From a virus (Duplodnaviria > Heunggongvirae > Uroviricota > Caudoviricetes), in IMG/VR virus record IMGVR_UViG_3300032007_000006, positions 121,360-185,359 of that record: a stretch of DNA of 64,000 nt; one strand, written 5' to 3'. Below, piece by piece: positions 9,101-44,213 of the stretch. Positions within the stretch are counted from its first letter, which is position 1. Each line of letters begins with the position of its first letter. A model generated the notes under the pieces. It was not told the DNA's origin. It saw nothing but the letters and a program-made list of their open reading frames with translations, and did not search any database. Both the position numbers and the translations under genes were made by a program.

Positions 9101-12100
9101 GGTCTTCCATTTATGGCCCAAAAATCTATGGCCTTTTCCTTTTCCATTGTTTGAACAATAATGTCTTTGGAGTCCAGAGTGAAAATTTCAGTTGGAGAAG
9201 ATTTCCCATACTCTTGGATCATCCATGTACGATTGTTTATGTATGGACGTCCATTTTCAATGACAGGGCCAATAATTCCACTAAGTTCTTCACCAATCAT
9301 CCAGGACTTGACGTTATTGTTGATGACAATTTTTGGATATACTCCAGGAACAGCAGTGATTCCAGTGGACTGTCCATTGAAATACCATACTGGACGTCCA
9401 TCTATCATTCTAACTTCTGGTTCATTTGCATAGACTGAAAAGGAAGTCTGCTTTCCACCAAGAACCCATTTCCATGAACGTCTGCGGACATATGGAGCAT
9501 ATGTTGATGGATTTTGAACCATGGACGCTTCGGCATCAGTCAGTTCCATGCCTATGTCTTTTCCATTGGCGATAAGCCATTTTGTGGAACCATTGTCGGA
9601 AATGCATTCGCTGGACTGTCTTGCTATGTATTCCGTATGGCCAGACACTGGATTTGAACCATTGTATGTCCATATCCAGTCTGTCCATCCGACTATTACA
9701 TTCTGAGCTCCCGCTCCATTTTCAACTGAATTTCCAAAAAGAAACTTTTTAAGTTCAGCATTTTCTGGATCTTCTTCAATTTGCGCTATTTCATTTTGTT
9801 CTTTTTGTGACAGAAGTCCAGTTGGAATATAGGATATGTACTTGTCTGCATGAAGAGGATTCAAGTCTCTCCAATAGACGTTTCCGGTTGTTGAACCAAC
9901 AGAGAGTCTTATTCTTCCTCCTGCCATAGCAGAAGTCAATGAAGTTAAAGTCTCGTCAACTTCAACGTATTCATTTCCTCTGCGAACATATATTGGAATA
10001 TTGATCCATTGAGATTCTGTGCTGTTGTTTACGGAGTATTCATAGGATTTGATAAAGTTCTCATCGGCTTCGTTTTCGGCGAGACTGCGCTCCTCTTCTC
10101 TAATGATGGCCATTTCAATTTTTGCAATTGCATTCTTCTCTTCTTCGGAGAGATTAGATGGAACTGCATTTCCTTGTATTTTTGCATTCATGGCCGCAAA
10201 AATTGCTGAATTTCCAGAATATTCTGGAGCATACAGCTGGATGGCCCTTGATATGTTGTCTGTGCCCTTCAGATAGGCCAGCAGAATCCGCTTTGTATTG
10301 ATCTCGTTGCTTCCATACGTTTCCAGCATTCTTTGATTGACATATGAAGCGAATGAATCTTCAATGTCTGTGTCTGCATTATAGACAAATCTTTTTGTTC
10401 CAAGTATGGAACGATCAAAGCATCTTGTTCCATAATAGAGAATAAGACCACCTTTTTCATATAGTCCAACAACAATTGGAAAATTATAGGCTTTGAACGT
10501 TGTCATGCCAATAATTTTGCTCATGGAAGACATTGCATCTGTTCCAGACAGATCTTTTGGAACATTTGTGTCGCCTGTTGAATCTCCTCCATATATTCCA
10601 GAAGATTTGACATAGAAGCCATATTCATCATAAACTACATATTCTTTTTCTGCATTTTCCGTGCTTTCATCATTAAGAGGTGGATATACTCTTGGAAGGG
10701 CCGAGTCTCCGTTTCTTCCACTGGAGGAATTTGTTATGCTTCCCTTTGAAAGAGACTTTGCGTACAGGTATTTCTTGTCTATGCGAACATCCATTCCATT
10801 GTTGACTTGTCTGCAAGTAGTCATGCCAGCTGCGGCAACAACAAACACCTTTTCGTACTGTTCTATCTGAATTGAGTATGGAACAAGAGAGGCTTCCCAT
10901 GTCCATGATGGATATGAGGCCGTCTTGCTTCCTGGATTCACTCTTGTTGTCAAGCCAATTATGGACGTGCCACTAGCAAGCTGCAATTCATCCATAATTG
11001 AATAGATGTTGACATTTTCTGACATGTCTATATTGACAATGGCATCGCTAATTCCAAATATGCTAGATTGACCGGAAGTGAATAATCCAGTTAGTCTAGG
11101 AATTAAAAAGTCTCCATATTCTAGAAGAGCGATTTTAAAACTTCCCAATGTTATTGTGGCGTATACTTCCTGCTTTGAAGCGGATGAATCCACAGCGGCG
11201 CTGTATATGCAGTTTGAATGTGGAAATGCTTCAGCCAAGCCAATTCTGAATGATTGTGATGGTTTAGAGTCAAAATTGGAATTAAATTGAGATTCAATAA
11301 TTAAAGTTCCATCAGATGCGACTGAAACTCTTGCCAGCTTTCCAAATGAAGCACCAGATGATGAACCAATAATCATAATAAATGTCTGTTTTTGGTTGTT
11401 CATCCATAGCGTCCATGAAAGTCCTGTGCTGTGGACAAGATTGTCCATATAGGGAAGTTTTGCGTAGCACTGTTCAATTGTTGAACCATCACCCACATAG
11501 ATATAGTTTCCTACGCCGTATCGTGTTCCAGAACCTGTAAGATGTGGTTCGGTAACTGTGTATATGTTTCCAATTGATGGATAGAATTCTGGCCAGCCAC
11601 CAGTGGATGAGATTAGATATGTTCTTGAAGAATCATAATTAATGGAAGAAGGATGCCATAAATTTTCTGGATCTGTTGATTGAACATACAGCGAGAATGA
11701 TTCAGACGAAAGAGAATTTGCATTCCATTGTACAAGTTTTCTCGCTGGAGATGAATTGAGACGTATTTGCTTCAATTCAGAATATTGAACATATGGAATG
11801 CTTCCTATTGAAACGGTACTTCCAAAAAGATATTTTCCTTCCGAATTAACTGAAAACTTTTTCCAGGTATTTCCAGATGCAACCATCAAGTCCTTTTTGA
11901 GGGCTTCCGATGCTTTCATATACTTGAATGCAGAAGATACGCTTCTAACGACAGGAACAAGATTTTTCTCTTCAATGGTGAATTGAAGATTGAATACTTC
12001 AACTAAACTTTCTTTAAGAACAGCAAATCTTAGAGGAGAATTTATTCTGTCAATATTGAAATTTGCTAATGCATTAATTGAATTTTCGCTTTGTTCAATA

Positions 12101-15100
12101 ACTTCAACTTTATTTTCTGCATCATATTTCATTGTGCAGAGAAAATTGACATTTGGAATTGAGAATATGGTTTCATTAAAAAAGGCATGAAGAATTTTGC
12201 TTTCGTGATGCTGAATGAATATTGATGCTAGTTGTCCCAATTCAGATGCATTTGTGGCATCCGAAGCTTTAACTTCTCTTAGATGATATCTTGACGGATT
12301 AGAACTTTCATTTTCTGGATCGGTGGATGGTTCCATAAAAAACATTTTTATGGAACCATCAATAAGAACAAAAATAGGCGTGTTTTCATCTACTGGACTT
12401 GAAATGAATAGATTATTGTTCCATTCTTCAAGCATCCTACCAGTATTTTCTTCCGAAACACTAAGCCATAGTTCATTTCCATCTTCTTCTAAAGAGAATG
12501 TTCTTATAATTCCCTCTTCTTCTGTCAATGCTGCATATTGATGAAATTGGGATATTTCTCTTCCAAAGTTGAGACAGGAAATGGAATATCTCTCTTGAAG
12601 AAGACCATTTTCTCCGGTTAAAGACCATATTCTTGTATCTCCAACAACATAGCATGATGGATCAGAAGATGAAGCAATTTGTCCAATTTCGTATGATATT
12701 GCTGGAATTGCTGAATCAAATGGAATTTTGCATCCATATTTTCCATTAAATTCAATTTTGATTGCTTCAGCCTGTTCCGTGCATTCGGATTGAGGACATT
12801 CTTGAAGAGGTTGACCAGATATTGCTTCTTCTGTTGTGAATGCAAGACATGTTGATGAAAGAGGAATATAATGCCATTCTGAATTTGTCAACCGTTCAGT
12901 ATCTTGAAAATATTCTCTATATTGACCATTCCAGTTTTGCATGTCAACTACAGAGACTTCGGAAATTTCAAGAGTTAATGTAACTTCCTTAGTAAGTGAT
13001 TCGTAAACTGAATTGTTGTTTGCGTCAAGACTATAAGCAAGAAATGTTTTTGTACATGGAATTTCAATAATGAAGTTGTCTTGACCATTATTGATTTTTG
13101 GTTTAAATGTACCTATTCCATTCCAAGGAATAGGTACAGTTTGAATTGAATCATCCCAATTCTTTGAAAATGATAATTTCACCAAATTGTTTCCATTTCT
13201 TGTCATTTTAACAAGACCGGCTGGATATGCACGATTTATTGTTGTGTTGTCTACTTTATAGGAATGCATGCATTCAAGCACATGCTTGGAATAGTTTTCA
13301 TCTGGAATTAATGAATTTAATCTTTCCTTGTCTATATCAGAAATAGAAAATTTGTATGCATCTATGGCATTTGCAAATGCAAGCTTGCATGTTATCCAAT
13401 TTCCCTTGATTTCTCCTGTGTCATCGTTTGTATCGCTTGAAAGGATTCCTGTAGAAGAATATACAATGCGTCGTGAAGCGTTCTTTTCTGTTGAAGATTG
13501 TGAAGCGTTAGACAGTCTATAAAGACATCCATTCCTTGAAATTGATGTTAGGGTGTATTCAAAGTCTGAAAGAAGATATGAATCCACTTCAGTCAACGAT
13601 CCAGATTGATTTGAAACGTATACTTTTGTGGATGATGTCTGAATTTGCACGTTTGCTGGATAAAGAGTGCTAAGGATTGCGCGTCTAGGTATTGCAGACA
13701 CCTTTATCTTTTCTATGCTGTCGTAGTCAAATGATGTAGGAAAGGTAATGTCTTCCAAGTCATTCAATTCATTTGTTTCTACTAATTGAAATTTGGATGG
13801 AAGATCTGTTGAAGTGCTGTAGTAGAGTATGGCGTAAGCCAGATCATCTGGACTTGTGGATTCTCCTTCATATAGAAGTGCAATTTTGAACTGCTTCTGT
13901 TCATCATTTGTTGATATTTTTTCAATTTCTGTAAAATTTATTTCTGGTTTGTCTATTACATAGAAGCCAGCCCTAAAGTGAATTATTCTATTGAAAAAAT
14001 CAGTAGTTGAATCTGGATTGACTCTAAACTCAAAAGAAAGAACATTAGAAGAAAACGAAGAAGAACCATAGAATATCTGATCTTGATCAAGATACACTAG
14101 GGATGGAAGTGAATTGCTGGCATAGGCTGTATATCCATAAACACGTTCAACTGTACCAACGCTGGAAAATGAAGAAGAATAGCTGCGATAATCTACAAGA
14201 CTGGGAACGGTGGGATATCCATCTTGAGATACAAAAGTGCTGTTCCATCTTGAAGATGTTTGATTCCATCTGCAATAATAGGTAGTGGATGAAGTGGAGT
14301 TTTCAATGTCGCTGAATTGATAGCCTGTTGAATTTTCTGGAGTTCTTTCTATGGCTACGAATTTTTTAACAATAATTTTATTTTGAAGAACGTTTTCTGC
14401 ATTAAAGGCGATTCTCGCTGGTTCTTCTTGATCATTAAACAACTGAATTGTTTCTTCCGAAAGATTAAAGTCTGGATCCTTTTGCATAGCAACTGCTGCT
14501 GGATCTACGCTTCCTGGATTTTTTCTTACTTCATAATTTTCAATCCATCTGGAATAAAATTCTCCATTATTATTGGACTTTGCAACCCAGTAAAGTCCAT
14601 TTGCAGTTAGATGCTTTGGAAGAGGTTCAGAAGCATCAAGAATGGCAAATGGTTTTTCATATTTCCACTTTCTTGATGTGGAAATATAGGAATACAGATT
14701 TGGAATAAATGAATCATCAATATATTCATCTGGTCTATTGTCAACCATTTCGTTTTCAGAAACCAGCGCGTTTGTGGCCAAAATTGTATAGCCATTTTGA
14801 GTTTTCATTTTCAACTCATTAACTGGAATTCCAGAAACGTTGGAGACTATAGTATATTCGTTTGAACCTTCAACAACTCTTTTTGGAAGAATGGATATGG
14901 ATTCCTTGTTGATCCATTTTACAGTTTCACCATCTGGAGTAGAAGGATATGAAACGGGAATGCTTGTTTTTACGTCACAGGGAAAAGATACCTGCGACAA
15001 TGGAATAATATCGCTAAGAGTACCATTTTTGTTTGAAAATAATGGAATTGATTTCCATTGACTTTCTATGCGTTGTAAAAGCACACAGGACATCAAATCA

Positions 15101-15936
15101 CTTGATGCTCCGATTGTCCAGGCAACAGCATATGCTGAAATTTTTTCATTGCGTTCTGCAAATTCAAATTCTTTTAGTCTAATAAACTGAATGTTTTTAA
15201 CAGCGGCGGTCCGTGCCGCATTAAGGGAACTTTCATCATCTTCATATGAAAGCATTGATGCTGGAGGAAATGCTGGCAGAAATTCCCAAATGTCAATTCT
15301 AAAGGAGGAAAGATTGACATCAGACGCACTAAAGCATATAACGCCTTGATTTGTCGTCACGAAGAACATTCTTCCAGCGGAGAATATTCTGTATATTTCA
15401 AGATTTTCTTCGTCTAGTGCTGTTCCACCAGTTGAACTGAATTCAGCAAGCGACCATGTCTTTGAAACGGTTCCTTCGGCATTTTTAGTTTCGGTGTATA
15501 TGTAGAGATGATCTTTTGAAATGCCAATCATGACTCCAAATGAACTGGATCCTCCAACAGATGAAGCATCTCCACCATCGCCATCAGTTTTGACTGTTTC
15601 TCCTACTGCATATGCGGCATCCATAATGTCATTTCCAGCATAGGACTTGGAATAGGATGCAACGTTGAGATTGTCATAGTTGTAGCATCCGTATATTGTT
15701 CCACTGGATCCATATGCAATGGTATTGACGCCATGCTCATCGGAAAGATTGAATATGCCAGACCAGACCACGTCAGACATGTCCTGACGATTTTCAATTC
15801 CTTTCATGCTTCCAGACTTGTCCATATAGGACATTCTGTCTTCCGTGATTGCCGCGACTTCATCCATTGCATGGCTTGTCTTGCCTGTGCATCCATTCAT
15901 TAACAGTGCTGGATCGAATGCAGAAGAGAGTTTCAT
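6121..15936 (-). CDS. Giant (3271 aa) putative virion/tail protein
   Basis: Uninterrupted 9.8-kb ORF, SD AAGGAGG; Ser-rich beta sequence with W-x-I/V-x-G-x-x-T-G repeats. Confidence 0.75.
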   Translation of the reverse strand: MKLSSAFDPALLMNGCTGKTSHAMDEVAAITEDRMSYMDKSGSMKGIENRQDMSDVVWSGIFNLSDEHGVNTIAYGSSGTIYGCYNYDNLNVASYSKSYAGNDIMDAAYAVGETVKTDGDGGDASSVGGSSSFGVMIGISKDHLYIYTETKNAEGTVSKTWSLAEFSSTGGTALDEENLEIYRIFSAGRMFFVTTNQGVICFSASDVNLSSFRIDIWEFLPAFPPASMLSYEDDESSLNAARTAAVKNIQFIRLKEFEFAERNEKISAYAVAWTIGASSDLMSCVLLQRIESQWKSIPLFSNKNGTLSDIIPLSQVSFPCDVKTSIPVSYPSTPDGETVKWINKESISILPKRVVEGSNEYTIVSNVSGIPVNELKMKTQNGYTILATNALVSENEMVDNRPDEYIDDSFIPNLYSYISTSRKWKYEKPFAILDASEPLPKHLTANGLYWVAKSNNNGEFYSRWIENYEVRKNPGSVDPAAVAMQKDPDFNLSEETIQLFNDQEEPARIAFNAENVLQNKIIVKKFVAIERTPENSTGYQFSDIENSTSSTTYYCRWNQTSSRWNSTFVSQDGYPTVPSLVDYRSYSSSFSSVGTVERVYGYTAYASNSLPSLVYLDQDQIFYGSSSFSSNVLSFEFRVNPDSTTDFFNRIIHFRAGFYVIDKPEINFTEIEKISTNDEQKQFKIALLYEGESTSPDDLAYAILYYSTSTDLPSKFQLVETNELNDLEDITFPTSFDYDSIEKIKVSAIPRRAILSTLYPANVQIQTSSTKVYVSNQSGSLTEVDSYLLSDFEYTLTSISRNGCLYRLSNASQSSTEKNASRRIVYSSTGILSSDTNDDTGEIKGNWITCKLAFANAIDAYKFSISDIDKERLNSLIPDENYSKHVLECMHSYKVDNTTINRAYPAGLVKMTRNGNNLVKLSFSKNWDDSIQTVPIPWNGIGTFKPKINNGQDNFIIEIPCTKTFLAYSLDANNNSVYESLTKEVTLTLEISEVSVVDMQNWNGQYREYFQDTERLTNSEWHYIPLSSTCLAFTTEEAISGQPLQECPQSECTEQAEAIKIEFNGKYGCKIPFDSAIPAISYEIGQIASSSDPSCYVVGDTRIWSLTGENGLLQERYSISCLNFGREISQFHQYAALTEEEGIIRTFSLEEDGNELWLSVSEENTGRMLEEWNNNLFISSPVDENTPIFVLIDGSIKMFFMEPSTDPENESSNPSRYHLREVKASDATNASELGQLASIFIQHHESKILHAFFNETIFSIPNVNFLCTMKYDAENKVEVIEQSENSINALANFNIDRINSPLRFAVLKESLVEVFNLQFTIEEKNLVPVVRSVSSAFKYMKASEALKKDLMVASGNTWKKFSVNSEGKYLFGSTVSIGSIPYVQYSELKQIRLNSSPARKLVQWNANSLSSESFSLYVQSTDPENLWHPSSINYDSSRTYLISSTGGWPEFYPSIGNIYTVTEPHLTGSGTRYGVGNYIYVGDGSTIEQCYAKLPYMDNLVHSTGLSWTLWMNNQKQTFIMIIGSSSGASFGKLARVSVASDGTLIIESQFNSNFDSKPSQSFRIGLAEAFPHSNCIYSAAVDSSASKQEVYATITLGSFKIALLEYGDFLIPRLTGLFTSGQSSIFGISDAIVNIDMSENVNIYSIMDELQLASGTSIIGLTTRVNPGSKTASYPSWTWEASLVPYSIQIEQYEKVFVVAAAGMTTCRQVNNGMDVRIDKKYLYAKSLSKGSITNSSSGRNGDSALPRVYPPLNDESTENAEKEYVVYDEYGFYVKSSGIYGGDSTGDTNVPKDLSGTDAMSSMSKIIGMTTFKAYNFPIVVGLYEKGGLILYYGTRCFDRSILGTKRFVYNADTDIEDSFASYVNQRMLETYGSNEINTKRILLAYLKGTDNISRAIQLYAPEYSGNSAIFAAMNAKIQGNAVPSNLSEEEKNAIAKIEMAIIREEERSLAENEADENFIKSYEYSVNNSTESQWINIPIYVRRGNEYVEVDETLTSLTSAMAGGRIRLSVGSTTGNVYWRDLNPLHADKYISYIPTGLLSQKEQNEIAQIEEDPENAELKKFLFGNSVENGAGAQNVIVGWTDWIWTYNGSNPVSGHTEYIARQSSECISDNGSTKWLIANGKDIGMELTDAEASMVQNPSTYAPYVRRRSWKWVLGGKQTSFSVYANEPEVRMIDGRPVWYFNGQSTGITAVPGVYPKIVINNNVKSWMIGEELSGIIGPVIENGRPYINNRTWMIQEYGKSSPTEIFTLDSKDIIVQTMEKEKAIDFWAINGRPVNNFSTSENITPITKFSTDYRPCWKFKNVMDSTENGAFKSSLSTPYSSKTGGCPFILEPQCIGVINTVNETPIWKSTAKNSFNESCVECDMFFVEPIGTTNRAYVRTVENTKSLEVSGTLAEGETLQNLKFFIGMSGKEWWLLPEPDGSGSQKSRIGPYVSDATPQSRIGTRWKCNRIVDNSVKEWDSFDAPQNSKVEEDFVEEINQETGATETVKCWFINGINTGLKCGHYTKPKLKCSIWQWSLSSDLHPIIRESGTCPYKKRPEYCMWFNGLNVGKIQNIGSPQLFTGKSESTLHWFVDGVDTGIKCLPEYTSTVSAIPPSTASGRWKFEWRVKDADSLNDVLVATTSSCANPITKEVANSWWMKDKNGNLVDTKINAMDPLRGKGLESDGIASRMVSETYWNEEKKKYETVGPQRRSWTPLASLFVDAYSEVSYGVLESIKNPWSTENPDIMKKGMVWEMISSKDLFGTSGVYIAESKSTSWDSYEEGDGAGNASAYAFDVYIGWKRNEDRNDLYDSYCAIRSIETGAVTKWTVYAKDWKFEHLELVVKSNGKLNNIVILASKGWIASTNSISYANEGKDIKAIVWNSPVNPVADVLNEIEKIVQFKWNSWDSNEISEFAAVGSYGVYVYSPDCIRFTASIPYGDNAELIEIVWNPKNSEFKIWGVDVALDDDFSTSTTIAKGEGIDYLGKEEDFETAYEKNAVNASQGKSVSINSLNAQTIYKHHHKRMDGVKETLYYQFSEATTSFDEITNVTDSQDENAVFIVADLPYRFTNGTKTWTYVYSKCNPSTKEVLGAGYLINQVSWKWMWVREEIKTESKKMSYITVSENTKSVAYGFPDLKRFIKSYKNLYTNALEFVGGVCQFASSERDSANIDGKSLKEAYEELAKIDGLKIYSENLDVAWNIFKQAKRLRDASHYAENDCYNTYLQKIGQSLALEHQDYFNKAKQAMWTAQAFKNYYAGLVARGTSANVQLEQDAVGGDSYKLK

Positions 15937-25128: not shown

Positions 25129-26109
25129 CTAATCTTCATCGTCTGAAGCATTCAGAACTTCTCCAGTTTCTGGATCAACCATTTCATTGTCTGGAGATGC
25201 AGCTCCAAGCTGATATCTGGCTTTGATGTAGTCCTTGAACTTCTGATCCGCAAGAATGCTTCCAAAGAATTCATCACAGTTGGTGTCTTTTTGACGGTAT
25301 TTCTTCTCCTCGCCTACTTTTTGATACCATCCATTGGAAGGCTTGACAACAAAGCCTCCATCAATAGCCAGTTGCAGAAGTCCAGACCATTTGTTTATGC
25401 CTCCATTATATGTCACGTCAAAGGGAAGCTTGGCCTTTTCGCGGACATAGCGGGACTTTTCAATATGAATGGTGTATGTGTATCCAGCAAGATCGGAACC
25501 TTCCTTTATCTGAGACTTTGTAATGATGAAGGCCGTGTTGCAGGAATACATTACGCCTGAATTGTGGGAAATAAGACCATTTGGATGCATATAGGAATGG
25601 GCGTCCTCAACTTCAAGATCATAGACGTCCTTTTCCCCAAGTTCAACAATGTCCACAAGACGAAGCTTCGTGCCATCCAGTCCTCGGAACATCAGCTGCT
25701 TTGGCTCTTCATTTTCGTCCATCATGTCCTTTGCGGCAATCCATTCATTTGCAGTGGAAAGCAGCTTGTGATCTCCAGAGCAGGTCAGCTTGAATCCATC
25801 GGAAAACACCAGACGATAGACTGTTGGATGGCCATTCTCAAGGGTTTCTGGAGTCCAGACATTCAGAACTTCCTTCCATCCTTCATGGGAACGAACCTTC
25901 ATTCCTTTCTTGACATGCTCTATAGCCTTCAGTCCCTGGTCAGTTGCAATGAGCGTCTTGGGAACAACGCATCCACCAGAAATAACGTCCTTGGGATATA
26001 TGGAGTTGTGTGTTATTACTCCGTTTTCTAATGTAAAACAATGTTCATCAGCAACTGTTAGATCATATAATGGAAATGGTTTTATTTTTCTAATCGCTTT
26101 GATTTTCAT
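25129..26109 (-). CDS. uvsX: UvsX C-terminal half: IntC (35 aa) + 11-aa extein + 137-aa mini-intein + C-extein
   Basis: SD GGAGG before ATG 26109; MKIKAIRK...YDLTV...VITHN|S; second intein CVVPKT...LISHN|S; C-extein GVMYS...EKSR...GGINKWSGLL matches T4 UvsX. Confidence 0.9.
   Translation of the reverse strand: MKIKAIRKIKPFPLYDLTVADEHCFTLENGVITHNSIYPKDVISGGCVVPKTLIATDQGLKAIEHVKKGMKVRSHEGWKEVLNVWTPETLENGHPTVYRLVFSDGFKLTCSGDHKLLSTANEWIAAKDMMDENEEPKQLMFRGLDGTKLRLVDIVELGEKDVYDLEVEDAHSYMHPNGLISHNSGVMYSCNTAFIITKSQIKEGSDLAGYTYTIHIEKSRYVREKAKLPFDVTYNGGINKWSGLLQLAIDGGFVVKPSNGWYQKVGEEKKYRQKDTNCDEFFGSILADQKFKDYIKARYQLGAASPDNEMVDPETGEVLNASDDED
25561..25971 (-). mobile_element. Contiguous mini-intein (137 aa, no endonuclease)
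   Basis: C1, block B TCSGDH, block F VYDLEV, terminal HN/S. Confidence 0.9.
26005..26109 (-). mobile_element. Split intein C-fragment (IntC)
   Basis: Block F YDLTV and block G HN/S at the N-terminus of a separately initiated ORF. Confidence 0.9.
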
Positions 26110-27121
26110 TGTTAGCCTCCTTTGGCTTATGCTTGCAGTTATCCATATGCCATCGCAAAAAAGCATTTGGATATCCATTACAAGTTTTTCCACAATAAGG
26201 ACAAGTCAAGGTTTGATATTCAGTTTGTTCAGTAAACAGTTTTTTAAACTGAGGATCATTTTCATATTCCTCAAATTTTCCAAATTGTGTTTCAAATTCT
26301 CCTTTTGAATATATTTTTCCTTTATATTCAACACGTTTTGCCATTGGATTTCCAGAACCTTTATGCTCTTTGGACATTTTTTCAAAATGTTCCTTGTATT
26401 TTTCTGGATTTTCATTATAACATTGAATTATCTTCTCCTTTCTAATTTCCTTTGCTTCGGGAGACATATTCAGTCTTCCATTTGAAATCTTTTGAGAACG
26501 TATTTTACGTTCTTCTTCTGTTAGATTAACTGTTTGCATATCATGGCATTTTTGTCTAAATGCTGCCATATATGCTTCATCTTGTTTACGTTCTTTCCAT
26601 AGAGATTTTAGAATGTTTGATTGGTTTTCGTGTCGTTCTTCTGAATCCCAACTATGTTTTACAACTTCTTTAAAATGTTCCTTTTCTTCATCACTTTTAG
26701 ACGCCCATTTATTTCGTAATTTATCAGACACAATAAGTTTATCTTCATCACTTTTAGACGCCCAAGTTTTTTTAAGTGAATCAGATTTACGTTTCATCGC
26801 TTTTTGGTATTCAATTTTATCCATGTGTTCAAATGGATGTTCTGGCCAACAATATCCATGTTCTTCGATAAGATTGGCAAAGCACTTGTCTGAAACCACA
26901 TTAAAAAGTTTACTGTAATACTTTCCATATTCAGCAAGTTCCTCTTTATTGTCGGTTTCTTCAAGAATGATAGTAGTTATATCATCTCCATATTCAGACA
27001 AGTGCTTTAGCCAATAGTGTCCAGAACCTTTATACTTGTATGGATTTTGTTTAGAAGTAATGCAAAGATACTTCAAACCAGTTACATTATGTTGTTTCAG
27101 CATTAGTTTGTAGGTTTTCAT
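26090..27121 (-). CDS. Free-standing GIY-YIG-like (Seg-type) homing endonuclease
   Basis: YKLMLKQHNVTGLKYLCIT...YKGSGHYW; repeated WASKSDE modules; C-terminal CPYC; AT-rich; sits between IntN and IntC. Confidence 0.75.
   Translation of the reverse strand: MKTYKLMLKQHNVTGLKYLCITSKQNPYKYKGSGHYWLKHLSEYGDDITTIILEETDNKEELAEYGKYYSKLFNVVSDKCFANLIEEHGYCWPEHPFEHMDKIEYQKAMKRKSDSLKKTWASKSDEDKLIVSDKLRNKWASKSDEEKEHFKEVVKHSWDSEERHENQSNILKSLWKERKQDEAYMAAFRQKCHDMQTVNLTEEERKIRSQKISNGRLNMSPEAKEIRKEKIIQCYNENPEKYKEHFEKMSKEHKGSGNPMAKRVEYKGKIYSKGEFETQFGKFEEYENDPQFKKLFTEQTEYQTLTCPYCGKTCNGYPNAFLRWHMDNCKHKPKEANNENQSD
26685..26764. repeat. 23-bp direct repeat (two copies) in the endonuclease gene
   Basis: TCTTCATCACTTTTAGACGCCCA at 26685-26707 and 26742-26764, encoding WASKSDE. 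Confidence 0.85.
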
Positions 27122-27398
27122 TGCTTATTTCCGTCAATGAACACCCAACATTAAGGTTATCTGCTCTTATCCATTCGCCATCGCAAAGAAATTTATGGTT
27201 TCCAGTACAGTGAATTAATGTTCCATCTTCACACTCAATTTCGTAGTATGTTTTGTCTTCAATTGGAATACGTTCTGGATTAACGACATCTAAAACTTCT
27301 TTATAGCCGTTTGGAGTAAGAACCTTATCCCCAATCAATACATCACAGATTTGCTTAATGCCGGATGCAGTCACAACTCTTGTGGAGTATTTAAGACA
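27087..27398 (-). mobile_element. Split intein N-fragment (IntN)
   Basis: Block A CLKYSTRV, block B CTGNHKF, then stop with no block F/G. Confidence 0.9.
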
Positions 27399-28001
27399 AC
27401 CCATCTCTTTGTAAGTATGTGCTATAATCAGACATGATAGATTCTTCATCGTTATGTGAGGCGTAGTGATGCGGAACAGGCTTTTTATTTCCTGCGCTCT
27501 AGTCATGTCCTTTGAAGAGTTTTCTGCCATTGCATTCTCATATTCCTTCTTGGAAGCGAGATTGCCAATGGAGTCAACCATCATGAATACATGGTCTCCA
27601 CGTTCAACTGATTCCAGTCTGGAAACAAGATCGAATTTCAGTTCTTCAATGTTGGTGACAGGAATATGCACCACCCGTTCAACATCTATGCCAATGGAAG
27701 CCAAATAGTCGGAAGGAGTGCCAAATTCCGAGTCATAGAAGAGGCCAACTGCATCGGAATACTTGTCCAGATAGGCCTTCATCGAGTATAGCGCCAGCAT
27801 TGACTTGAAGGATTTGCTGGCTCCAGCCAGAACAGTAACGCCAGGCGTCAATCCACCTTCCAAATCGCCAGAAAATGCAATGTTCAGAATTGGAAGGTCT
27901 GTCCTGCAGGTCTCATTGGTAGTGAAGTATATGGAATCTTTGAGTATTGAAGCCGTTTTTACTTTTCCTGCCTTATTGAGCTTGTCTAATAGAGTTCCCA
28001 T
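27087..28001 (-). CDS. uvsX: UvsX N-terminal half (201 aa) fused to split intein IntN (103 aa)
   Basis: Walker A GASKSFKS, YDSEFG, VDSIGNLASKKE, AHTYKEMG|CLKYSTRV...CTGNHKF. Confidence 0.92.
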   Translation of the reverse strand: MGTLLDKLNKAGKVKTASILKDSIYFTTNETCRTDLPILNIAFSGDLEGGLTPGVTVLAGASKSFKSMLALYSMKAYLDKYSDAVGLFYDSEFGTPSDYLASIGIDVERVVHIPVTNIEELKFDLVSRLESVERGDHVFMMVDSIGNLASKKEYENAMAENSSKDMTRAQEIKSLFRITTPHITMKNLSCLIIAHTYKEMGCLKYSTRVVTASGIKQICDVLIGDKVLTPNGYKEVLDVVNPERIPIEDKTYYEIECEDGTLIHCTGNHKFLCDGEWIRADNLNVGCSLTEISNENLQTNAETT

Positions 28002-29246: not shown

Positions 29247-30284
29247 TTATCCATTAATCCATTTTGAATGCTTGACTTTTGCAGTCAGGCCCTTCCAGGA
29301 ATTTTCAACAAAAAGACGCTCAATGTCAATAGGCTTCATGCCATCAATCACCATGTCGTTGACATCCATTCCTTCATATCTAGAATCCAGCAGAACTGTC
29401 CGCAGTCCCTTGCTTACGCATTTAGCAATTTCTCCTGCAACCTGCTTGTTCCGTCGTTCCTGATCATTGAAATAAATGCATTCCATTTCAGAACTTTGAA
29501 ACTTCCAGAGTGCGGCTTGCAGACGAGCAATGGAATTGTGAAGAAACAGCGAATCAATGCATCCTTCAACGACAAAAACAGGCTTTGTTTTGTCCAGTTT
29601 TCTTGGTACAAAGCAGAGTTCTCCAGAGGAACCATCTATTGTGCATGTCGAGAAGCGAAACTTTTTGTCTTTGGAATAAATGTCTCTAATCTGCCATCCA
29701 GCAAGATTGAGATTGAAGTCTCTTACAGGGAAGAGAATTCCCTTTTCAATAAGAGTTGACTTGTCGTACTTTGGTCCAATGACTGTTTTTACCAGCAGGG
29801 GAAAATTGTCTGTCCAAAGAACATGAGACATCATTTCCCTGTCAATTTTTCGACCTTCAAGATACTTGACGGCATCATGCTCCTTGTCAAGTTCAGAGCA
29901 TTTTCTGGTTAATGGATGGCAGAGAAACTTTTGCTCCATTGCAGATGGAGCTTCAATGTTTCTTGATTCCTTTCTTTTTGGCTTGAATGACAGATTTTTT
30001 TCGGCCTTGAAGGCTTCAAGACAGTATCTTCTATGCAGTTCTTCATCAATCGTCTTGAGAAACTTTTGAATTCCAAAAGATGCTCCACAGTTATGACAGT
30101 AAAAAGACCATCCCTTTTCTTCAGAATGGCGAATAAAATATCCTCTACGCTTAAAGGCGTTGGTGGCTGAATCGCCACATATGGGGCATTTGCAATTGTA
30201 GAGTCCATCTCTGACCTTTCTGAATCCTTCAAGAGACTTTCCTACTTCTTCAATGTATTGCTCCTGCATCCATGGAGATTCCAT
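29247..30284 (-). CDS. gp61: T4-like DNA primase
   Basis: Zn finger CPICGDS...CHNCG; TOPRIM VEGCIDS, FND, DVND. Confidence 0.93.
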   Translation of the reverse strand: MESPWMQEQYIEEVGKSLEGFRKVRDGLYNCKCPICGDSATNAFKRRGYFIRHSEEKGWSFYCHNCGASFGIQKFLKTIDEELHRRYCLEAFKAEKNLSFKPKRKESRNIEAPSAMEQKFLCHPLTRKCSELDKEHDAVKYLEGRKIDREMMSHVLWTDNFPLLVKTVIGPKYDKSTLIEKGILFPVRDFNLNLAGWQIRDIYSKDKKFRFSTCTIDGSSGELCFVPRKLDKTKPVFVVEGCIDSLFLHNSIARLQAALWKFQSSEMECIYFNDQERRNKQVAGEIAKCVSKGLRTVLLDSRYEGMDVNDMVIDGMKPIDIERLFVENSWKGLTAKVKHSKWING

Positions 30285-30328: not shown

Positions 30329-30357
30329 AAGATAGCACAGATGCTTTCATATGTCAA
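30329..30357 (-). promoter_or_regulatory. Sigma70-type promoter for primase
   Basis: TTGACA-17-TATCTT with TG extension. Confidence 0.7.
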
Positions 30358-30358
30358 G

Positions 30359-30382
30359 AAAAAGGTGGCAGAAGCCACCTTT
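30359..30382 (-). terminator. Intrinsic terminator after gp26/gp51-like unit
   Basis: AAAAGGTGGC-loop-GCCACCTTTT. Confidence 0.8.
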
Positions 30383-30390
30383 TGATGAAA

Positions 30391-30615
30391 TTATCGGTGT
30401 CTGGACTTTTCCAGATTTTCCTTCAATTTTCTTTCCTCGTTGTCCATAACTATTAAGCCATATATGATTTCCAGTTCAAATGGATACATGTCATATATGT
30501 CGGAGAATGTAAAGCCTCTATACTGTTGAAGAAGAAAGCAGGTTTTATACAACGAAATCAGTGTGGATTCGCCATTTTTTCCTATGCGTTCCGCACCGTA
30601 GACGAGGTAAAAAAA
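30391..30615 (-). CDS. gp51-like/tail-chaperone-type C-terminal domain, probably reached by -1 frameshift from gp26
   Basis: SLYKTCFLLQQY...DIYDMYPFELEIIYGL resembles the small gene after gp26 in T4-like phages; no in-frame SD+start. Confidence 0.6.
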   Translation of the reverse strand, partial: FFYLVYGAERIGKNGESTLISLYKTCFLLQQYRGFTFSDIYDMYPFELEIIYGLIVMDNEERKLKENLEKSRHR

Positions 30616-31337
30616 TCCATTGCGTTCACTGCATGGAACGAACGCTTGTTGCCGCAAGTAGGACAAACAACGTCATAGTCGAGAACAACGCTTGGCATTT
30701 TTTCAACAAATTCAATGAATGTCTTGAGATATTCACCAGGAAGAGAGTTGAACCATTCATAGGCTTCTTCTTTTGTAAAGTCTGTAAACATTTCATCGCC
30801 CTGATAGATGGCCTTAATGCAGTCAACGTATACGTCAATGTAGTCCTCGCTTGTCAATTCATCTTTGGCCTGCAAGGGAGCAATGACTGCATATCTTGGA
30901 TATTGCAGTTCTACGCCAATTTCATCAGTAAGATGCACGATTTTTCCATTTTCAGACTCACCTTCAATTCTATAGTCTGAAATGTCAACTGTCATTGATA
31001 TTTTCGTTCCACATTCATGCTGATTGTCCTTTGGACCAACCATATTGCTGCAGACAAAGGCAAGATCCCGCGTTGAAGTTTTGCTCAAGGATAGAATTTC
31101 AATAAGCAGTATAACAATGTCACAGACACACAGGTCTTCAACCTTCGCTTCACTTTCCTTAAACGTGGTTTTCAACTCAATCAGCTTCATAAGACTGTTC
31201 TCAAGAATCATGTCTCCAAGATCTTTGGAAAGCAGAAGATTTTTCTCTTCCTTTACTGTAAAGGCCTGAACAGAAGCATGATATTTTGATACAGGAAGTT
31301 CAATTTCTTTAAGCAGTGGCAGTATTTTTGGCAGCAT
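30582..31337 (-). CDS. gp26: Baseplate hub protein (T4 gp26-like)
   Basis: MLPKI...FTVKEEKNLLL, CSN...EC, LQYP, CPTCG...FF pattern; SD AGGAGG. Confidence 0.8.
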   Translation of the reverse strand: MLPKILPLLKEIELPVSKYHASVQAFTVKEEKNLLLSKDLGDMILENSLMKLIELKTTFKESEAKVEDLCVCDIVILLIEILSLSKTSTRDLAFVCSNMVGPKDNQHECGTKISMTVDISDYRIEGESENGKIVHLTDEIGVELQYPRYAVIAPLQAKDELTSEDYIDVYVDCIKAIYQGDEMFTDFTKEEAYEWFNSLPGEYLKTFIEFVEKMPSVVLDYDVVCPTCGNKRSFHAVNAMDFFTSSTVRNA

Positions 31338-31389
31338 TGCTGTTTCCTCCTTTTATTCAGAATAAATCTTATTCTACTTATAATATATC

Positions 31390-32145
31390 TTATGAACGTG
31401 CTAGTTTTCTTAGATGCGCTCCCATTCCTCTTTTTTCAGCCTTTTCCATTGCCTCTTTCTTTTCGTTAATTCCACCACCAGTGGGAACTCCAGCATCTTT
31501 TGAACTTTGTCTTAAAATTTGCATTTTTTCTGATGAAATGGTTCTAGTATCGGCCATATTCATGTAATTGTTTTCAATTGCTCCACCCGTCAACCAGTCT
31601 TCGGTTTTCAAGTCAAAACCAAAGTAGTTTAATGAAATAGAAAATGTTTGTGGAGCTGTTGCTGGCTCATAACTGTAGGATATGCCATTTATTTGAAAAA
31701 TTGTGCAGTCATAAAAAATAAAAGTCTGTGCTATATTTCCATTTGTAGAATATTGAATAATTTCAAGATCACTTTTTACATCATCAAAATATCCATACGT
31801 TCTTGTTTTTTGATTATAGGTTTCACGCAGCCACAGTTCCATGACATATAGTTCTGGACCAGTGTTGTATAGCGTTAATTCAAGATTGTTCTGTTCAAAT
31901 CCATTGGGAACATTCATGTTTGTGCCACCCATATAGATTTTTTCATTGTCTATTGTCCAGTTTGGAATTGTTACTTGGGATACCATGTATTGAACATATC
32001 TTGAATATTGATTCCAAAATTTTCCTCCTCCAAAAGTAGCAGTATATCTGTTGTTGAGAAGAATATGCTGCATTCTTTTCTTGAAGGCCATAATTGATTT
32101 GATGCCTTCTCTTGTATCTCTTTCAAGATGAGTTATATTGCTCAT
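31390..32145 (-). CDS. Tail-tube-family protein (gp54/gp19-like baseplate-tube junction)
   Basis: NRY, QVTIP, LTLY, IIQYSTNG, F(Y)DC, ISYSYE, FSISLNY pattern. Confidence 0.7.
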   Translation of the reverse strand: MSNITHLERDTREGIKSIMAFKKRMQHILLNNRYTATFGGGKFWNQYSRYVQYMVSQVTIPNWTIDNEKIYMGGTNMNVPNGFEQNNLELTLYNTGPELYVMELWLRETYNQKTRTYGYFDDVKSDLEIIQYSTNGNIAQTFIFYDCTIFQINGISYSYEPATAPQTFSISLNYFGFDLKTEDWLTGGAIENNYMNMADTRTISSEKMQILRQSSKDAGVPTGGGINEKKEAMEKAEKRGMGAHLRKLARS

Positions 32146-41539: not shown

Positions 41540-42591
41540 TTTCTCATTTCCTCGGCCTGCTTCCAGATTTTCTGCAGGAGCATCTGTGCGGCCTTCTCCT
41601 TTTCGGGTTCATCCTTCCACCTTAATGATATGTCATTAGACACCATTTTGATGGGATTGTCAATGTCTTCGATAACTGTCTCAACTTCTTCATCTTTTTG
41701 GACAGAGGCAATGACCTGCACCGTCTGTGCTCCAGATTCCGAAATTCTTGAGAGAATCTTTTCCACTTCCTTCGGCTTCACGTCTGGATCTATTGAAATT
41801 TTTATGAATTTTCCACTACAGTCTCCAAAGTCATTCTTTGCTGTCTTGGAGTTGACCGATATTTTCTTGTGTATGGAGCATTTAGTAAAAACTTCCTCAA
41901 TGGACCTGTCTTCTGTGTCGTAGACAAAAAATCTTTTCCTGTCTCCATAGTCATTCCAGTTCAGTTCATAGGGAGTGCCAACATAGATGATGTTGTCGTG
42001 TTCTGAAGTCAAATGATAATGGCCAGAGAATACCTTACGATACTTTCTTACGTCTTCCCTGTTAATGCAGTCTGTTTCGGACTTGAATCCTCTCACCATT
42101 TCAAAGCCAGCGAGTTCGAAGTGTCCAAGCAGAAACGTTTCTGAATCTGCATTCTCGGCAACGGCCTTGGCGCAGGTCTCCCTGTTCTCGTCACATACCC
42201 AGGGAATCATTAGAAACTTCTGTTCATCAAAATCAAATGAAGTTGGTTCCTTGACTATCCGAACATGCTTCAGCCTGTCGGACAATTGAGACATTCCGTC
42301 GATGGATATTGTATTCTTGTAGTAGGAGTCATGGTTGCCAACAAGCGATATGAAGTCCACTTCATTCTCTTCAAACCATTTGAAAAAGTGGTTCGTTATC
42401 CAGTCGGCAACCATGAAATCAATTGACTTTCTTCTGTCGTGGACGTCTCCAAGCTGAAGAACATGCCTTATTCCATTCTCCTTGATGTATGGAAAAAGCA
42501 TATTGAAAAAGAAGTCCTTCATCATTTTGAACAGGACTGGATTGGAGTTTCTCACTCCAATATGGAGATCTCCAAGAATCAATATCTTCAT
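41536..42591 (-). CDS. gp47: Recombination exonuclease nuclease subunit (Mre11/SbcD-like)
   Basis: GDLH, LGDVHD, GNHD, GHFE, GHYH. Confidence 0.95.
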   Translation of the reverse strand: MKILILGDLHIGVRNSNPVLFKMMKDFFFNMLFPYIKENGIRHVLQLGDVHDRRKSIDFMVADWITNHFFKWFEENEVDFISLVGNHDSYYKNTISIDGMSQLSDRLKHVRIVKEPTSFDFDEQKFLMIPWVCDENRETCAKAVAENADSETFLLGHFELAGFEMVRGFKSETDCINREDVRKYRKVFSGHYHLTSEHDNIIYVGTPYELNWNDYGDRKRFFVYDTEDRSIEEVFTKCSIHKKISVNSKTAKNDFGDCSGKFIKISIDPDVKPKEVEKILSRISESGAQTVQVIASVQKDEEVETVIEDIDNPIKMVSNDISLRWKDEPEKEKAAQMLLQKIWKQAEEMRK

Positions 42592-44213
42592 ATCATGATT
42601 CCCCTTTTGGCCAGTTCATCCTTTGCATCCTGCGCCAGATGCTTGTACTTGAAGGCTTCCTTCTTGTCGGCCTTTCTTTCTTTGAACAGCGTTGAAATTA
42701 GTTCTATAATGATGGACTTTCTAGTCACGTCAAAGAATTCGCAATTGGTTGAAAGTGAAACTCCCTTTTTCTTCAGCCACTTGACTACAGTTTCTGGCAT
42801 GTCATTGTTAATATAAAACTCATTGAATATGCCAGTTTTGGATATTTCTTCAAACATCGGCCTGCATTCCGATGAAGTTTGAAGAATTTCCATCAATTCG
42901 CTCTTCAGTTTGGTTCTTTCCTCTCCCTTCTTGTGAACGTCATCTCCAGTATTCCAGAGACGCATTATTGATGGATACAGGGAAGTAAAGTCAAACGAAG
43001 CAATGCATTTCTTCAGTCCAGGAACTGGAGAATGAACATAGGCTCCTTCATAATGCTCCTTGTGTATTTCTCTGTCCTTGAACTTCCAGGGAACAACCTT
43101 GTGGTTTTCCATTCCATGCCTGTAAATTAAAGTTTCCCACACTTTCACTGGAGAAAAGGAGTCTTCAAAGTTGATTCCAGAGAAATAGGACAGATACGCG
43201 GCAAGGGAAATGAACTGCAGGTCCCTTTCAAAGCATACTACGCATCGGACGTCCTGAATGTTGTAGTCTACAAAGAACTTTGGATCATCATAGTAGAGAG
43301 AGCCGTGCGTTCCTTCAAAGCGAAGCTTCACGTCTTCTGGATTTTCGCATCTGGAGATGTAGTCCAGCGTATATTTTTCTCTTGGAACAAACCTGTATTT
43401 CTTGTAAAGATCCAGATAGTCAAGAATTGATATTCCAACTATGTCATAATAGCCAATGCTTCCACCAAATGTAGTCTTTTCGACTCTTGCGTTGATGGCC
43501 TTCCATGGAGACAGGGCATTCTTTGCCGCCTTCTCGCCAAACAGATTGTTTAGTCTATTGACAATGTATGGAATGTCAAACAGCTTGACGTTCCAGCCAG
43601 TGACGATATGTGGATAATTGGCCATCCAGAAACTAAGCCATTTTCTTAGAAGTTCAACTTCATTTTTGCAATAGACGTATTCTACCTCTTCGGCATACTT
43701 CAATTGGGAATCTTTCTTTGTCCATCCAGGAGCCGTTGTGAAGACATGGTATGTCTTGTCATCAGACCTGTAGTCGCATATGGCATTGATTGGAAATCTG
43801 GCATCCTTCGCTTCGGGAAAGCCACCATCAATCCATTCGTCTCCAACTTTTTGACGAGTGCATACCTCAATGTCAAGAAAGGAAATCTTTAGTTTTGATG
43901 TATCCTTTTCATCATAGTTCTCATTCCAGATGTATTGAATGACTAGATCGTTACATCCATATATCTCATCTTCCCATTCCTTGTTCTCTTCCAAAAAACG
44001 ATTCAAGTCTCCAGTGGAGTCGAACCAGTGTTCATCAACATGGCATTCTCCACGAAAGTCAAGCCATTCAGTATTTTTTGAAGTAGCCTTGAACGCACAT
44101 GGATGGATTTTTTCCTTTCTTAGAGATTCCTTTCCATCAACTAGTTCTCTAATGACCATGTATCCACCAAGTCTGTCAACATTGATGTATTGCTTTCCCA
44201 AGATTTCCTCCAT
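42588..44213 (-). CDS. gp43: Family B DNA polymerase, N-terminal subunit (gp43A-like)
   Basis: ExoI DIE, ExoII GWNVKLFDIPY, ExoIII YNIQDV, motif A DFTSLYPS; stops in fingers, no KxxxNSxYG/YGDTDS. Confidence 0.92.
   Translation of the reverse strand: MEEILGKQYINVDRLGGYMVIRELVDGKESLRKEKIHPCAFKATSKNTEWLDFRGECHVDEHWFDSTGDLNRFLEENKEWEDEIYGCNDLVIQYIWNENYDEKDTSKLKISFLDIEVCTRQKVGDEWIDGGFPEAKDARFPINAICDYRSDDKTYHVFTTAPGWTKKDSQLKYAEEVEYVYCKNEVELLRKWLSFWMANYPHIVTGWNVKLFDIPYIVNRLNNLFGEKAAKNALSPWKAINARVEKTTFGGSIGYYDIVGISILDYLDLYKKYRFVPREKYTLDYISRCENPEDVKLRFEGTHGSLYYDDPKFFVDYNIQDVRCVVCFERDLQFISLAAYLSYFSGINFEDSFSPVKVWETLIYRHGMENHKVVPWKFKDREIHKEHYEGAYVHSPVPGLKKCIASFDFTSLYPSIMRLWNTGDDVHKKGEERTKLKSELMEILQTSSECRPMFEEISKTGIFNEFYINNDMPETVVKWLKKKGVSLSTNCEFFDVTRKSIIIELISTLFKERKADKKEAFKYKHLAQDAKDELAKRGIMI

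Follow-up and report, generated by a model that had tools for sequence, protein, structure and literature searches.

We analysed a 64,000-nucleotide (nt) stretch of tailed-phage DNA (Caudoviricetes; positions 121,360 to 185,359 of the IMG/VR record IMGVR_UViG_3300032007_000006; herein referred to as the window) and found that its gene 26, which encodes a baseplate hub assembly protein, ends on the minus strand in a slippery heptamer beyond which a domain related to the C-terminus of T4 gp51 continues in the -1 frame. In all likelihood, judging from this arrangement and its conservation, gene 26 gives rise to a pair of proteins of 251 and 315 aa by programmed -1 frameshifting, similar to the G/GT pair of phage lambda. 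Most ribosomes would read frame 0 and produce the 251-aa gp26-like protein, whereas a minority, with tRNA-Phe occupying both the P and the A site, would slip back by one base on U_UUU_UUU and read 72 more codons to produce a 315-aa protein, in which a flexible linker connects the gp26 body to a domain of three helices that is homologous to the C-terminus of T4 gp51. The short and the long form would be the counterparts of the hub assembly chaperones gp26 and gp51 that T4 encodes separately, and the pair would probably work like lambda gpG/gpGT, with a shared chaperone body in excess and a rarer form bearing an extra docking domain used in hub and tail-tube initiation. The slippage itself, its ribosomal nature, the ratio of the two forms and the binding role of the tail are what we infer from the data laid out below.

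The short product corresponds to the open reading frame (ORF) at 30582..31337 (-), which defines frame 0, encodes 251 aa and is preceded by a GGAGG ribosome-binding site read from the sequence (31346..31350, minus strand, 8 nt before the ATG). Its translation matches the Pfam family PF12322 (T4_baseplate) at 1.6e-31 (110.2 bits, cut-off 24.5) across profile positions 7-218 of 219, and phrog_150 ("baseplate hub") at 5e-34, which bears out the gp26-like identity proposed in an earlier, sequence-only reading of this DNA. Toward its end the minus strand reads ...GCA ATG GAT TTT TTT ACC TCG TCT ACG GTG CGG AAC GCA TAG and contains the heptamer T_TTT_TTT at 30609..30615 (codons GAT TTT TTT; A7 on the plus strand), in a phase that conforms to the slippery pattern X_XXY_YYZ; base 30609 would be read twice in the long product. 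Frame 0 continues through the residues TSSTVRNA to a TAG stop (30584-30582) eight codons past the heptamer, and this end (30582..30608, minus strand), the sequence of which differs among members of the window's clade, is a dual-coding overlap with the linker of the tail. Runs of at least seven T or A are common in the window (15 were counted in 64 kb), so the run alone carries little weight, and the case for a slip site draws its weight from the phase of the run, the homology in the -1 frame and the comparative data. A separate feature of this region is a 9-bp hairpin (30622-30645, minus strand) that ends 6 nt before the T7 run, the pair scoring as intrinsic-terminator-like inside the end of gene 26; judged by eye, the hairpin (30645-30622) is not conserved among the clade relatives.

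The -1 frame is open from T7 to a TAA stop at 30393-30391 (30391..30608, minus strand; 72 codons plus the stop) and, as had been read directly from the letters before, both the heptamer and the open frame stand exactly where they were placed. This tail reads FFYLVYGAERIGKNGESTLISLYKTCFLLQQY...PFELEIIY...SRHR or, when the translation is counted from the run, FFYLVYGAERIGKNGEST...PFELEIIYGLIVMDNEERK...SRHR. Its resemblance to gp51, likewise suggested earlier, is upheld by a match (1.3e-7) that spans positions 63-116 of phrog_634, a family labelled "baseplate hub assembly catalyst", and by a hidden Markov model (HMM) that was built from 51 distinct -1 tails of other phages, the window being excluded, and that ranks the -1 segment first of the 754 stop-to-stop segments in the window (1e-11). 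A tblastn search with the tail alone against GenBank phages returned no match, the tail being too short and too diverged. The tail opens with a variable, low-confidence linker, YLVYGAERIGKNGEST (30562..30608, minus strand), that includes a clade-specific insertion of ~10 residues in the alignment. Body and tail do not share one continuous frame, the former ending with the frame-0 stop at 30582-30584 and the latter occupying the -1 frame; the predicted fusion would comprise 243 + 72 = 315 aa, in agreement with the two product sizes of 251 and 315 aa given by the sequence-only reading, and its predicted tryptic junction peptide is SFHAVNAMDFFYLVYGAER. The window is part of a 352,419-bp IMG/VR virus record (CheckV completeness 99%), in which a genome profile scan finds PF12322 in a single copy and in which the single match to phrog_634 is the -1 tail itself. 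With one copy of each family, the tail has no other route to expression, and a gp51-type tail occurs in this genome only as a start-less extension of gene 26.

The relationship to T4 accounts for the domain composition of the predicted long form. T4 gp26 (208 aa) and gp51 (249 aa) are baseplate hub assembly chaperones (Leiman et al. 2010, PMC3004832, Table 2), and neither is a component of the virion (PMC3004832). T4 gene 26 ends in ...GLKEFFELL, with the codons GAG TTC TTT GAG and hence no heptamer, and gene 51 is a separate gene transcribed divergently from gene 26. Residues 1-201 of T4 gp51 match the full PF12322 profile (3.9e-52), which identifies gp51 as a paralog of gp26. The C-terminal ~48 aa of gp51 (residues 195-249) match phrog_634 at 8.4e-11 (positions 52-103) and also phrog_150 at positions 228-281, a part of that profile covered neither by T4 gp26 nor by the frame-0 protein of the window. 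In phrog_150, the gp51-type tail domain (gp51 residues 200-249) corresponds to positions 236-282. Our tail HMM matches T4 gp51 at residues 200-247 (7e-6), starting from the residue that corresponds to the slip site, and does not match T4 gp26. In T4 gp51, body and tail are therefore joined in frame, in the architecture that a -1 slip would create in the window. Both systems draw on the same body family (PF12322) and follow the same logic of a short and a long partner, and the long form predicted here would share with gp51 the tail family and the junction just past the FF/VF motif; whereas T4 has two diverged and divergently transcribed paralogs, the single gene of the window must make both proteins, with identical bodies. 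T4 carries two PF12322 copies and no heptamer, whereas S-WAM1, S-RIM8, PX29, Mendera and the window genome carry one copy each, all with the heptamer.

To place the window among its relatives, loci were retrieved with gp26 queries from IMG/VR and GenBank, covering several cyanophage clades, Aeromonas phages, Stenotrophomonas phage Mendera and freshwater metagenomic lineages; two further loci ended before the gp26 stop and stand outside the count. All but one of the 93 loci (52 distinct tails among the 92) carry the heptamer T_TTT_TTY in phase and a -1 frame that continues for 30 codons or more; the exception also has the heptamer, on a contig that ends six codons into the tail. Where the contig holds the whole tail, the complete extensions measure 56-72 aa, and KVP40 and pf16 show the same arrangement of heptamer and -1 tail. 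Conservation of a slippery FF codon pair and of the -1 overlap, which the sequence-only reading had proposed as a check on its claim, was thus found in these loci, in KVP40 and pf16 and in six relatives from the window's own clade (see below). The 52 distinct tails align from their first residue (FF[RYS][LIV]x[LM], N-F-x-L, P-[WFY]-E and a basic or acidic helix). Although the residue ahead of FF varies (Ser, Asp, Ala or Asn), T is the third base of its codon in all 52 (TCT 20, GAT 10, GCT 10, AGT 9, AAT 3), against a background in the same genes of 33% GCT among Ala codons and 55% NNT among Ser codons; the first Phe codon is likewise TTT in 52/52, with a background of 70%. On these codon counts, conservation at the nucleotide level is greater than the protein needs. 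Because these lineages share ancestry, the counts cannot be taken as independent events, but at least nine deeply separated groups agree. Two of the freshwater metagenomic loci (L012 and L013) carry two overlapping in-phase heptamers, A_AAT_TTT and T_TTT_TTC.

Several observations weigh against a programmed frameshift in gene 26. The frame-0 stop lies eight codons past the heptamer in the window, compared with one codon in most lineages. The FF pair is kept as protein even in T4 (EFFELL in gp26, DVFKLL), such that part of the T-richness of the site reflects a coding constraint. Vibrio phage K483 (locus L108, OZ196438.1, 1940-2180) and its relatives, of ~157-158 kb, have a homologous -1 tail without the heptamer: the K483 gp26 gene ends ...TCA CTT TTC AAG TAA and an ATG overlaps the stop as TAATG, which indicates that at least one lineage can do with the tail as a separate protein. 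As for sequence elements that could stimulate slippage, the RNA downstream of the heptamer (30520-30608) folds no better than shuffled sequences (z 0.22), RNAalifold finds no pairs in seven clade sequences (L112 being the only relative with a notable local hairpin), and no Shine-Dalgarno (SD)-like motif lies upstream of the heptamer in the window. The fold match of the gp26 body to tail assembly chaperones (see below) is middling, all Z scores being below 8, and gene 26 is followed by a terminator and a primase gene, with no tape measure gene. Finally, this T4-like phage is uncultured, and its long product is inferred from sequence.

Since no RNA stimulator of ribosomal slippage was found and the window's clade has a run of seven T, the same two products could be thought to arise through transcriptional slippage, in which RNA polymerase would add an extra U on the T7 template and thereby generate an in-frame fusion mRNA; homopolymer runs are known sites of polymerase slippage. 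The related loci make this improbable. In 86 of the 92 loci the run is T6 followed by C, not T7, and such a run is short for a polymerase to slip on efficiently. Tandem slippage by the ribosome needs just what is seen, a strict X_XXY_YYZ phase and an invariant third base in the codon ahead of FF, whereas a polymerase needs no phase. Contigs from an RNA library (X3) have T7 with no insertion, although these are consensus sequences and may derive from DNA.

It is slightly less probable again that there is no recoding at all, the tail having an internal start of its own that gives a small gp51-like protein (~30-50 aa) and the heptamer being a by-product of the FF motif. GenBank annotates small ORFs in just this way in S-RIM8, KVP40, PX29 and Mendera, and both the TAATG start in the heptamer-free K483 lineage and the presence of FF in the T4 proteins fit this account. 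The small ORFs recorded as "baseplate hub assembly catalyst" in KVP40, S-RIM8 and others encode the same tail domain as that of the window (in the KVP40 record, the small ORF past gene 26, KVP40.0327, is noted to resemble the ~40 C-terminal residues of T4 gp51); unlike in our reading, these records treat the ORFs as free-standing genes with arbitrary starts, and they mention neither the heptamer nor a fusion. The distribution of start codons speaks against independent initiation. Among the relatives, the -1 frame meets a stop 0-12 codons upstream of the heptamer (directly against it in several), and in none of them is there a start codon between this upstream stop and the heptamer. The first start codon within the tail often lies only at +20 or +21, behind the conserved FFR[LIV]xL block; many lineages thus have no start before this point, yet the 20 preceding residues are conserved. 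In the window, the tail frame offers TTG at 30666 and at 30657 upstream of the site and only TTG at codon +21 and ATG at codon +42 past it, and no SD match was found at any of the four. An AGGA with an ATG (at 30575) does occur, in frame 0 behind the gp26 stop, where it encodes MANPH*; the earlier claims that the tail has no in-frame SD and start and that this AGGA + ATG pair is out of frame with it were therefore accurate. Furthermore, initiation within the tail would leave unexplained the wobble bases fixed in 52/52 tails and the covalent attachment of the tail to a gp26-type body, at the same junction, in T4 gp51. The tail is very probably reached only through a slip at the heptamer, to judge from these start sites. 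The K483 lineage is a third genetic solution beside the frameshift and the duplicated gene of T4.

The window's own clade and its strain variation provide finer resolution of the frame switch. A protein search returned 24 closer homologs with 51-85% identity, all of them 177-254 aa and none of fused length, and no in-frame protein of ~315 aa was present among 35 homologs of 138-440 aa. At six clade loci from different samples, GAT TTT TTT ACN is present in 6/6 with a frame-0 stop 5-8 codons further on, a TGA in the -1 frame directly abuts the heptamer in four of the six, and the core of the tail is strongly conserved (LISLYKTxFLLQQYRxFxFxDIYxxYPFExxIxYGLIxxDNEER). Specific to this clade are T7 in place of T6C, several codons of dual-coding overlap (eight in the window) and an inserted variable linker. 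For the strain comparison we used contigs from three other studies, consisting of the RNA library, which is identical to the window, and two DNA runs that diverge by ~1.2%. T7 is kept in the contigs of all three studies with no indel there, the sole indel being intergenic (30358). Before the heptamer, all 10 gene 26 substitutions in the divergent strains are synonymous in frame 0; after the heptamer, both substitutions are silent in frame -1 (TCG>TCA, and TAA>TAG at the stop). The selected frame switches at the heptamer. One of the variants, 30648 G>A, is synonymous in frame 0 but introduces a -1 frame TAA 11 codons ahead of the heptamer, so that the upstream TTG codons can no longer act as starts for the tail in this strain. 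These data leave almost no room for an assembly or sequencing error concealing a true T8 and a plain in-frame gp51-like gene, or for a decaying pseudogene: homopolymers are error-prone and, as noted, the window holds 15 such runs, but the contigs of three other studies cover the run without an indel, six clade relatives from different samples share T7 and the frame-0 stop, 92 loci of other lineages keep the arrangement, the substitutions are silent in both frames and the 35 homologs include no protein of ~315 aa.

Structure prediction lends support to a chaperone role for the gp26 body. The AlphaFold2 model of gp26, based on a 21-sequence alignment, has a mean predicted local distance difference test score (pLDDT) of 82.9 and a predicted template modelling score of 0.79; the eight residues past FF are disordered in the model, and residues 243-251 have pLDDT <50. 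When the model was compared exhaustively with 48,161 Protein Data Bank (PDB) chains, the best four matches were all to gp26 residues 1-91 (2ob9, Z 6.5; 3klu, 6.1; 3fgx, 5.7; 5ir0, 5.2), the next having a Z of 3.8. The first of these, 2ob9, is the tail assembly chaperone of HK97 (rmsd 4.7 over 80 aligned residues), which Foldseek also returns with a probability of 0.60, and the second, 3klu (Bacillus subtilis YqbN), presumably belongs to the XkdN-like tail assembly chaperone family. The predicted fold of the gp26 N-domain thus resembles solved tail assembly chaperones, a likeness that is supportive and not proof. No sequence-level link to tail assembly chaperone families was found, either with the gp26 profile against the PDB or with the N-domain and tail against Pfam, where PF12322 was the only match at E values up to 10. 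The model of the tail (pLDDT 80.7) consists of the low-confidence linker (residues 1-17) followed by three helices, residues 1-20 having pLDDT 59-69, and a fold search with this model returned only generic helical matches (Z 5.3 or less).

To our knowledge, almost all long-tailed phages are regarded as using programmed -1 frameshifting in their tail chaperone genes, and we know of no description of a tail chaperone frameshift for T4, the best-studied myovirus. Like arrangements include lambda gpG/gpGT, P2 E/E+E' and Mu gp41/42, and lambda G/GT needs no RNA stimulator. A G/GT-type pair is characterised by a gene position between the tail tube and tape measure genes and by two products made in a low and constant ratio, both required for tail assembly but missing from the virion, the body binding the tape measure and the extension the tube protein. 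Xu, Hendrix and Duda reportedly described, in 2004 in Mol Cell 16:11, a conserved -1 frameshift in the tail assembly chaperone genes of long-tailed phages; PMC9024508 includes their paper among its references. The window shares with lambda G/GT an X_XXY_YYZ heptamer near the end of the chaperone ORF and inside the ORF overlap, a downstream -1 domain without its own start, a position after a tube-family gene and the lack of a strong RNA stimulator. It differs from lambda G/GT in that its proteins belong to a different sequence family, its body is larger (243 aa) and includes an extra Cys4-containing domain, its heptamer is U-rich rather than G_GGA_AAG and no tape measure gene lies downstream; the T4 relatives of the window proteins, unlike lambda G/GT, are assigned to hub assembly. 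The analogy with gpG/gpGT probably holds, on the basis of the gene layout, the N-domain fold and the chaperone status of T4 gp26 and gp51 (PMC3004832). The G/GT-like pair put forward in the sequence-only reading has gained backing from the chaperone-like fold predicted for the N-domain and from a gp51 paralog that carries the tail in frame; on the other side, T4 itself does not frameshift, and the frameshift in the window is a predicted one.

We found no published gene 26 frameshift in the full-text literature searched, which covers few subscription journals, so that an earlier report may exist. The heptamer is, by its pattern of conservation, a conserved recoding signal in a family for which we found no published description. 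A wider hypothesis, which we regard as evenly balanced between true and false, is that the arrangement is ancestral to the whole T4 superfamily: -1 slippage on U_UUU_UUY would originally have let a single gene 26 yield both gp26 and gp26-51, which would serve the tape measure/tube initiation complex as its pair of tail assembly chaperones, and in the classical T-evens a gene duplication that gave rise to genes 26 and 51 would have taken over from the frameshift. If this is true, T4-type phages are no exception to the conserved-frameshift rule, and the long-unexplained "catalytic" gp51 finds an explanation. A slip site that makes gp26 gp51-like in most T4-like lineages would give these proteins a testable role as a short/long chaperone pair, and the existence of frameshifting and duplicated-gene versions would constitute a natural experiment on why the two forms must be present in a fixed ratio. 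Hundreds of phage genomes, in which the tail is either missing or a tiny gene with an arbitrary start, would have their annotation corrected as well. The window would be a further member with the traits of its clade, namely T7, the 8-codon dual-coding overlap, the inserted linker and the absence of an adjacent tape measure gene.

DNA of this record occurs in cattle-gut metagenomes of 11 studies. Along the minus strand, a gp4-like head closure gene, a gp2-like DNA end protector gene and a tail-tube-family (gp54/gp19-like) gene (31390..32145, minus strand; phrog_45, 1.5e-12) precede gene 26 and the tail, the tube-family gene being directly upstream of gene 26, as it is in PX29 (gp54), KVP40, pf16 and the clade relatives. 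An intrinsic-terminator-like hairpin with a T run (30360..30379, minus strand) lies just past the tail stop and not past the gp26 stop, which places the tail within the same transcription unit; contigs of the RNA library end at 30379-30387, at the terminator, which is only suggestive. Then follow, on the same strand, a sigma-70-like promoter (30329..30357; TTGACA, 17 nt, TATCTT, with TG) ahead of the primase gene (29247-30284, minus strand; phrog_47, 6e-55), and genes for a dNMP kinase, UvsX and a DnaB-like helicase. In both divergent strains (X4 and X8), an A is inserted at 30358 and four bases are replaced at 30370-30373, in the terminator/promoter spacer before the primase gene.

A T4 gp29-type tape measure and two other large-ORF families were absent from the genome matches (phrog_1283 and phrog_3824 were tried), a result that does not show absence, as tape measures diverge fast. 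In relatives (GenBank phages, L001-L004, L107 and L109), an ORF of 618-705 aa or larger lies directly past the tail, with no function assigned in PHROG; it belongs to phrog_11300 in PX29 and to phrog_3824 in Mendera and is not identifiable as a tape measure. This ORF occupies the position of the lambda-type tape measure, where the window's clade has the terminator and replication genes.

Other features of the window concern genes elsewhere on the minus strand. The UvsX-like recombinase seems to be split (25129-28001, minus strand): the ORF at 27087-28001 corresponds to the N-terminal part of phrog_97/8337 and that at 25129-26193 to the C-terminal part (phrog_18112, and phrog_97 positions 239-331), and the overlapping 343-aa ORF between them (26090-27121) has no PHROG match. 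An intein, an intron carrying a homing gene or a genuine split of the gene could each explain this. The DNA polymerase ORF (42588-44213, minus strand; 541 aa) spans only positions 8-497 of the 856-position phrog_262 profile and may be one of two genes between which the polymerase is divided, as is the case in some T4-like phages. The largest ORF of the window encodes 3,271 aa (6121-15936, minus strand).

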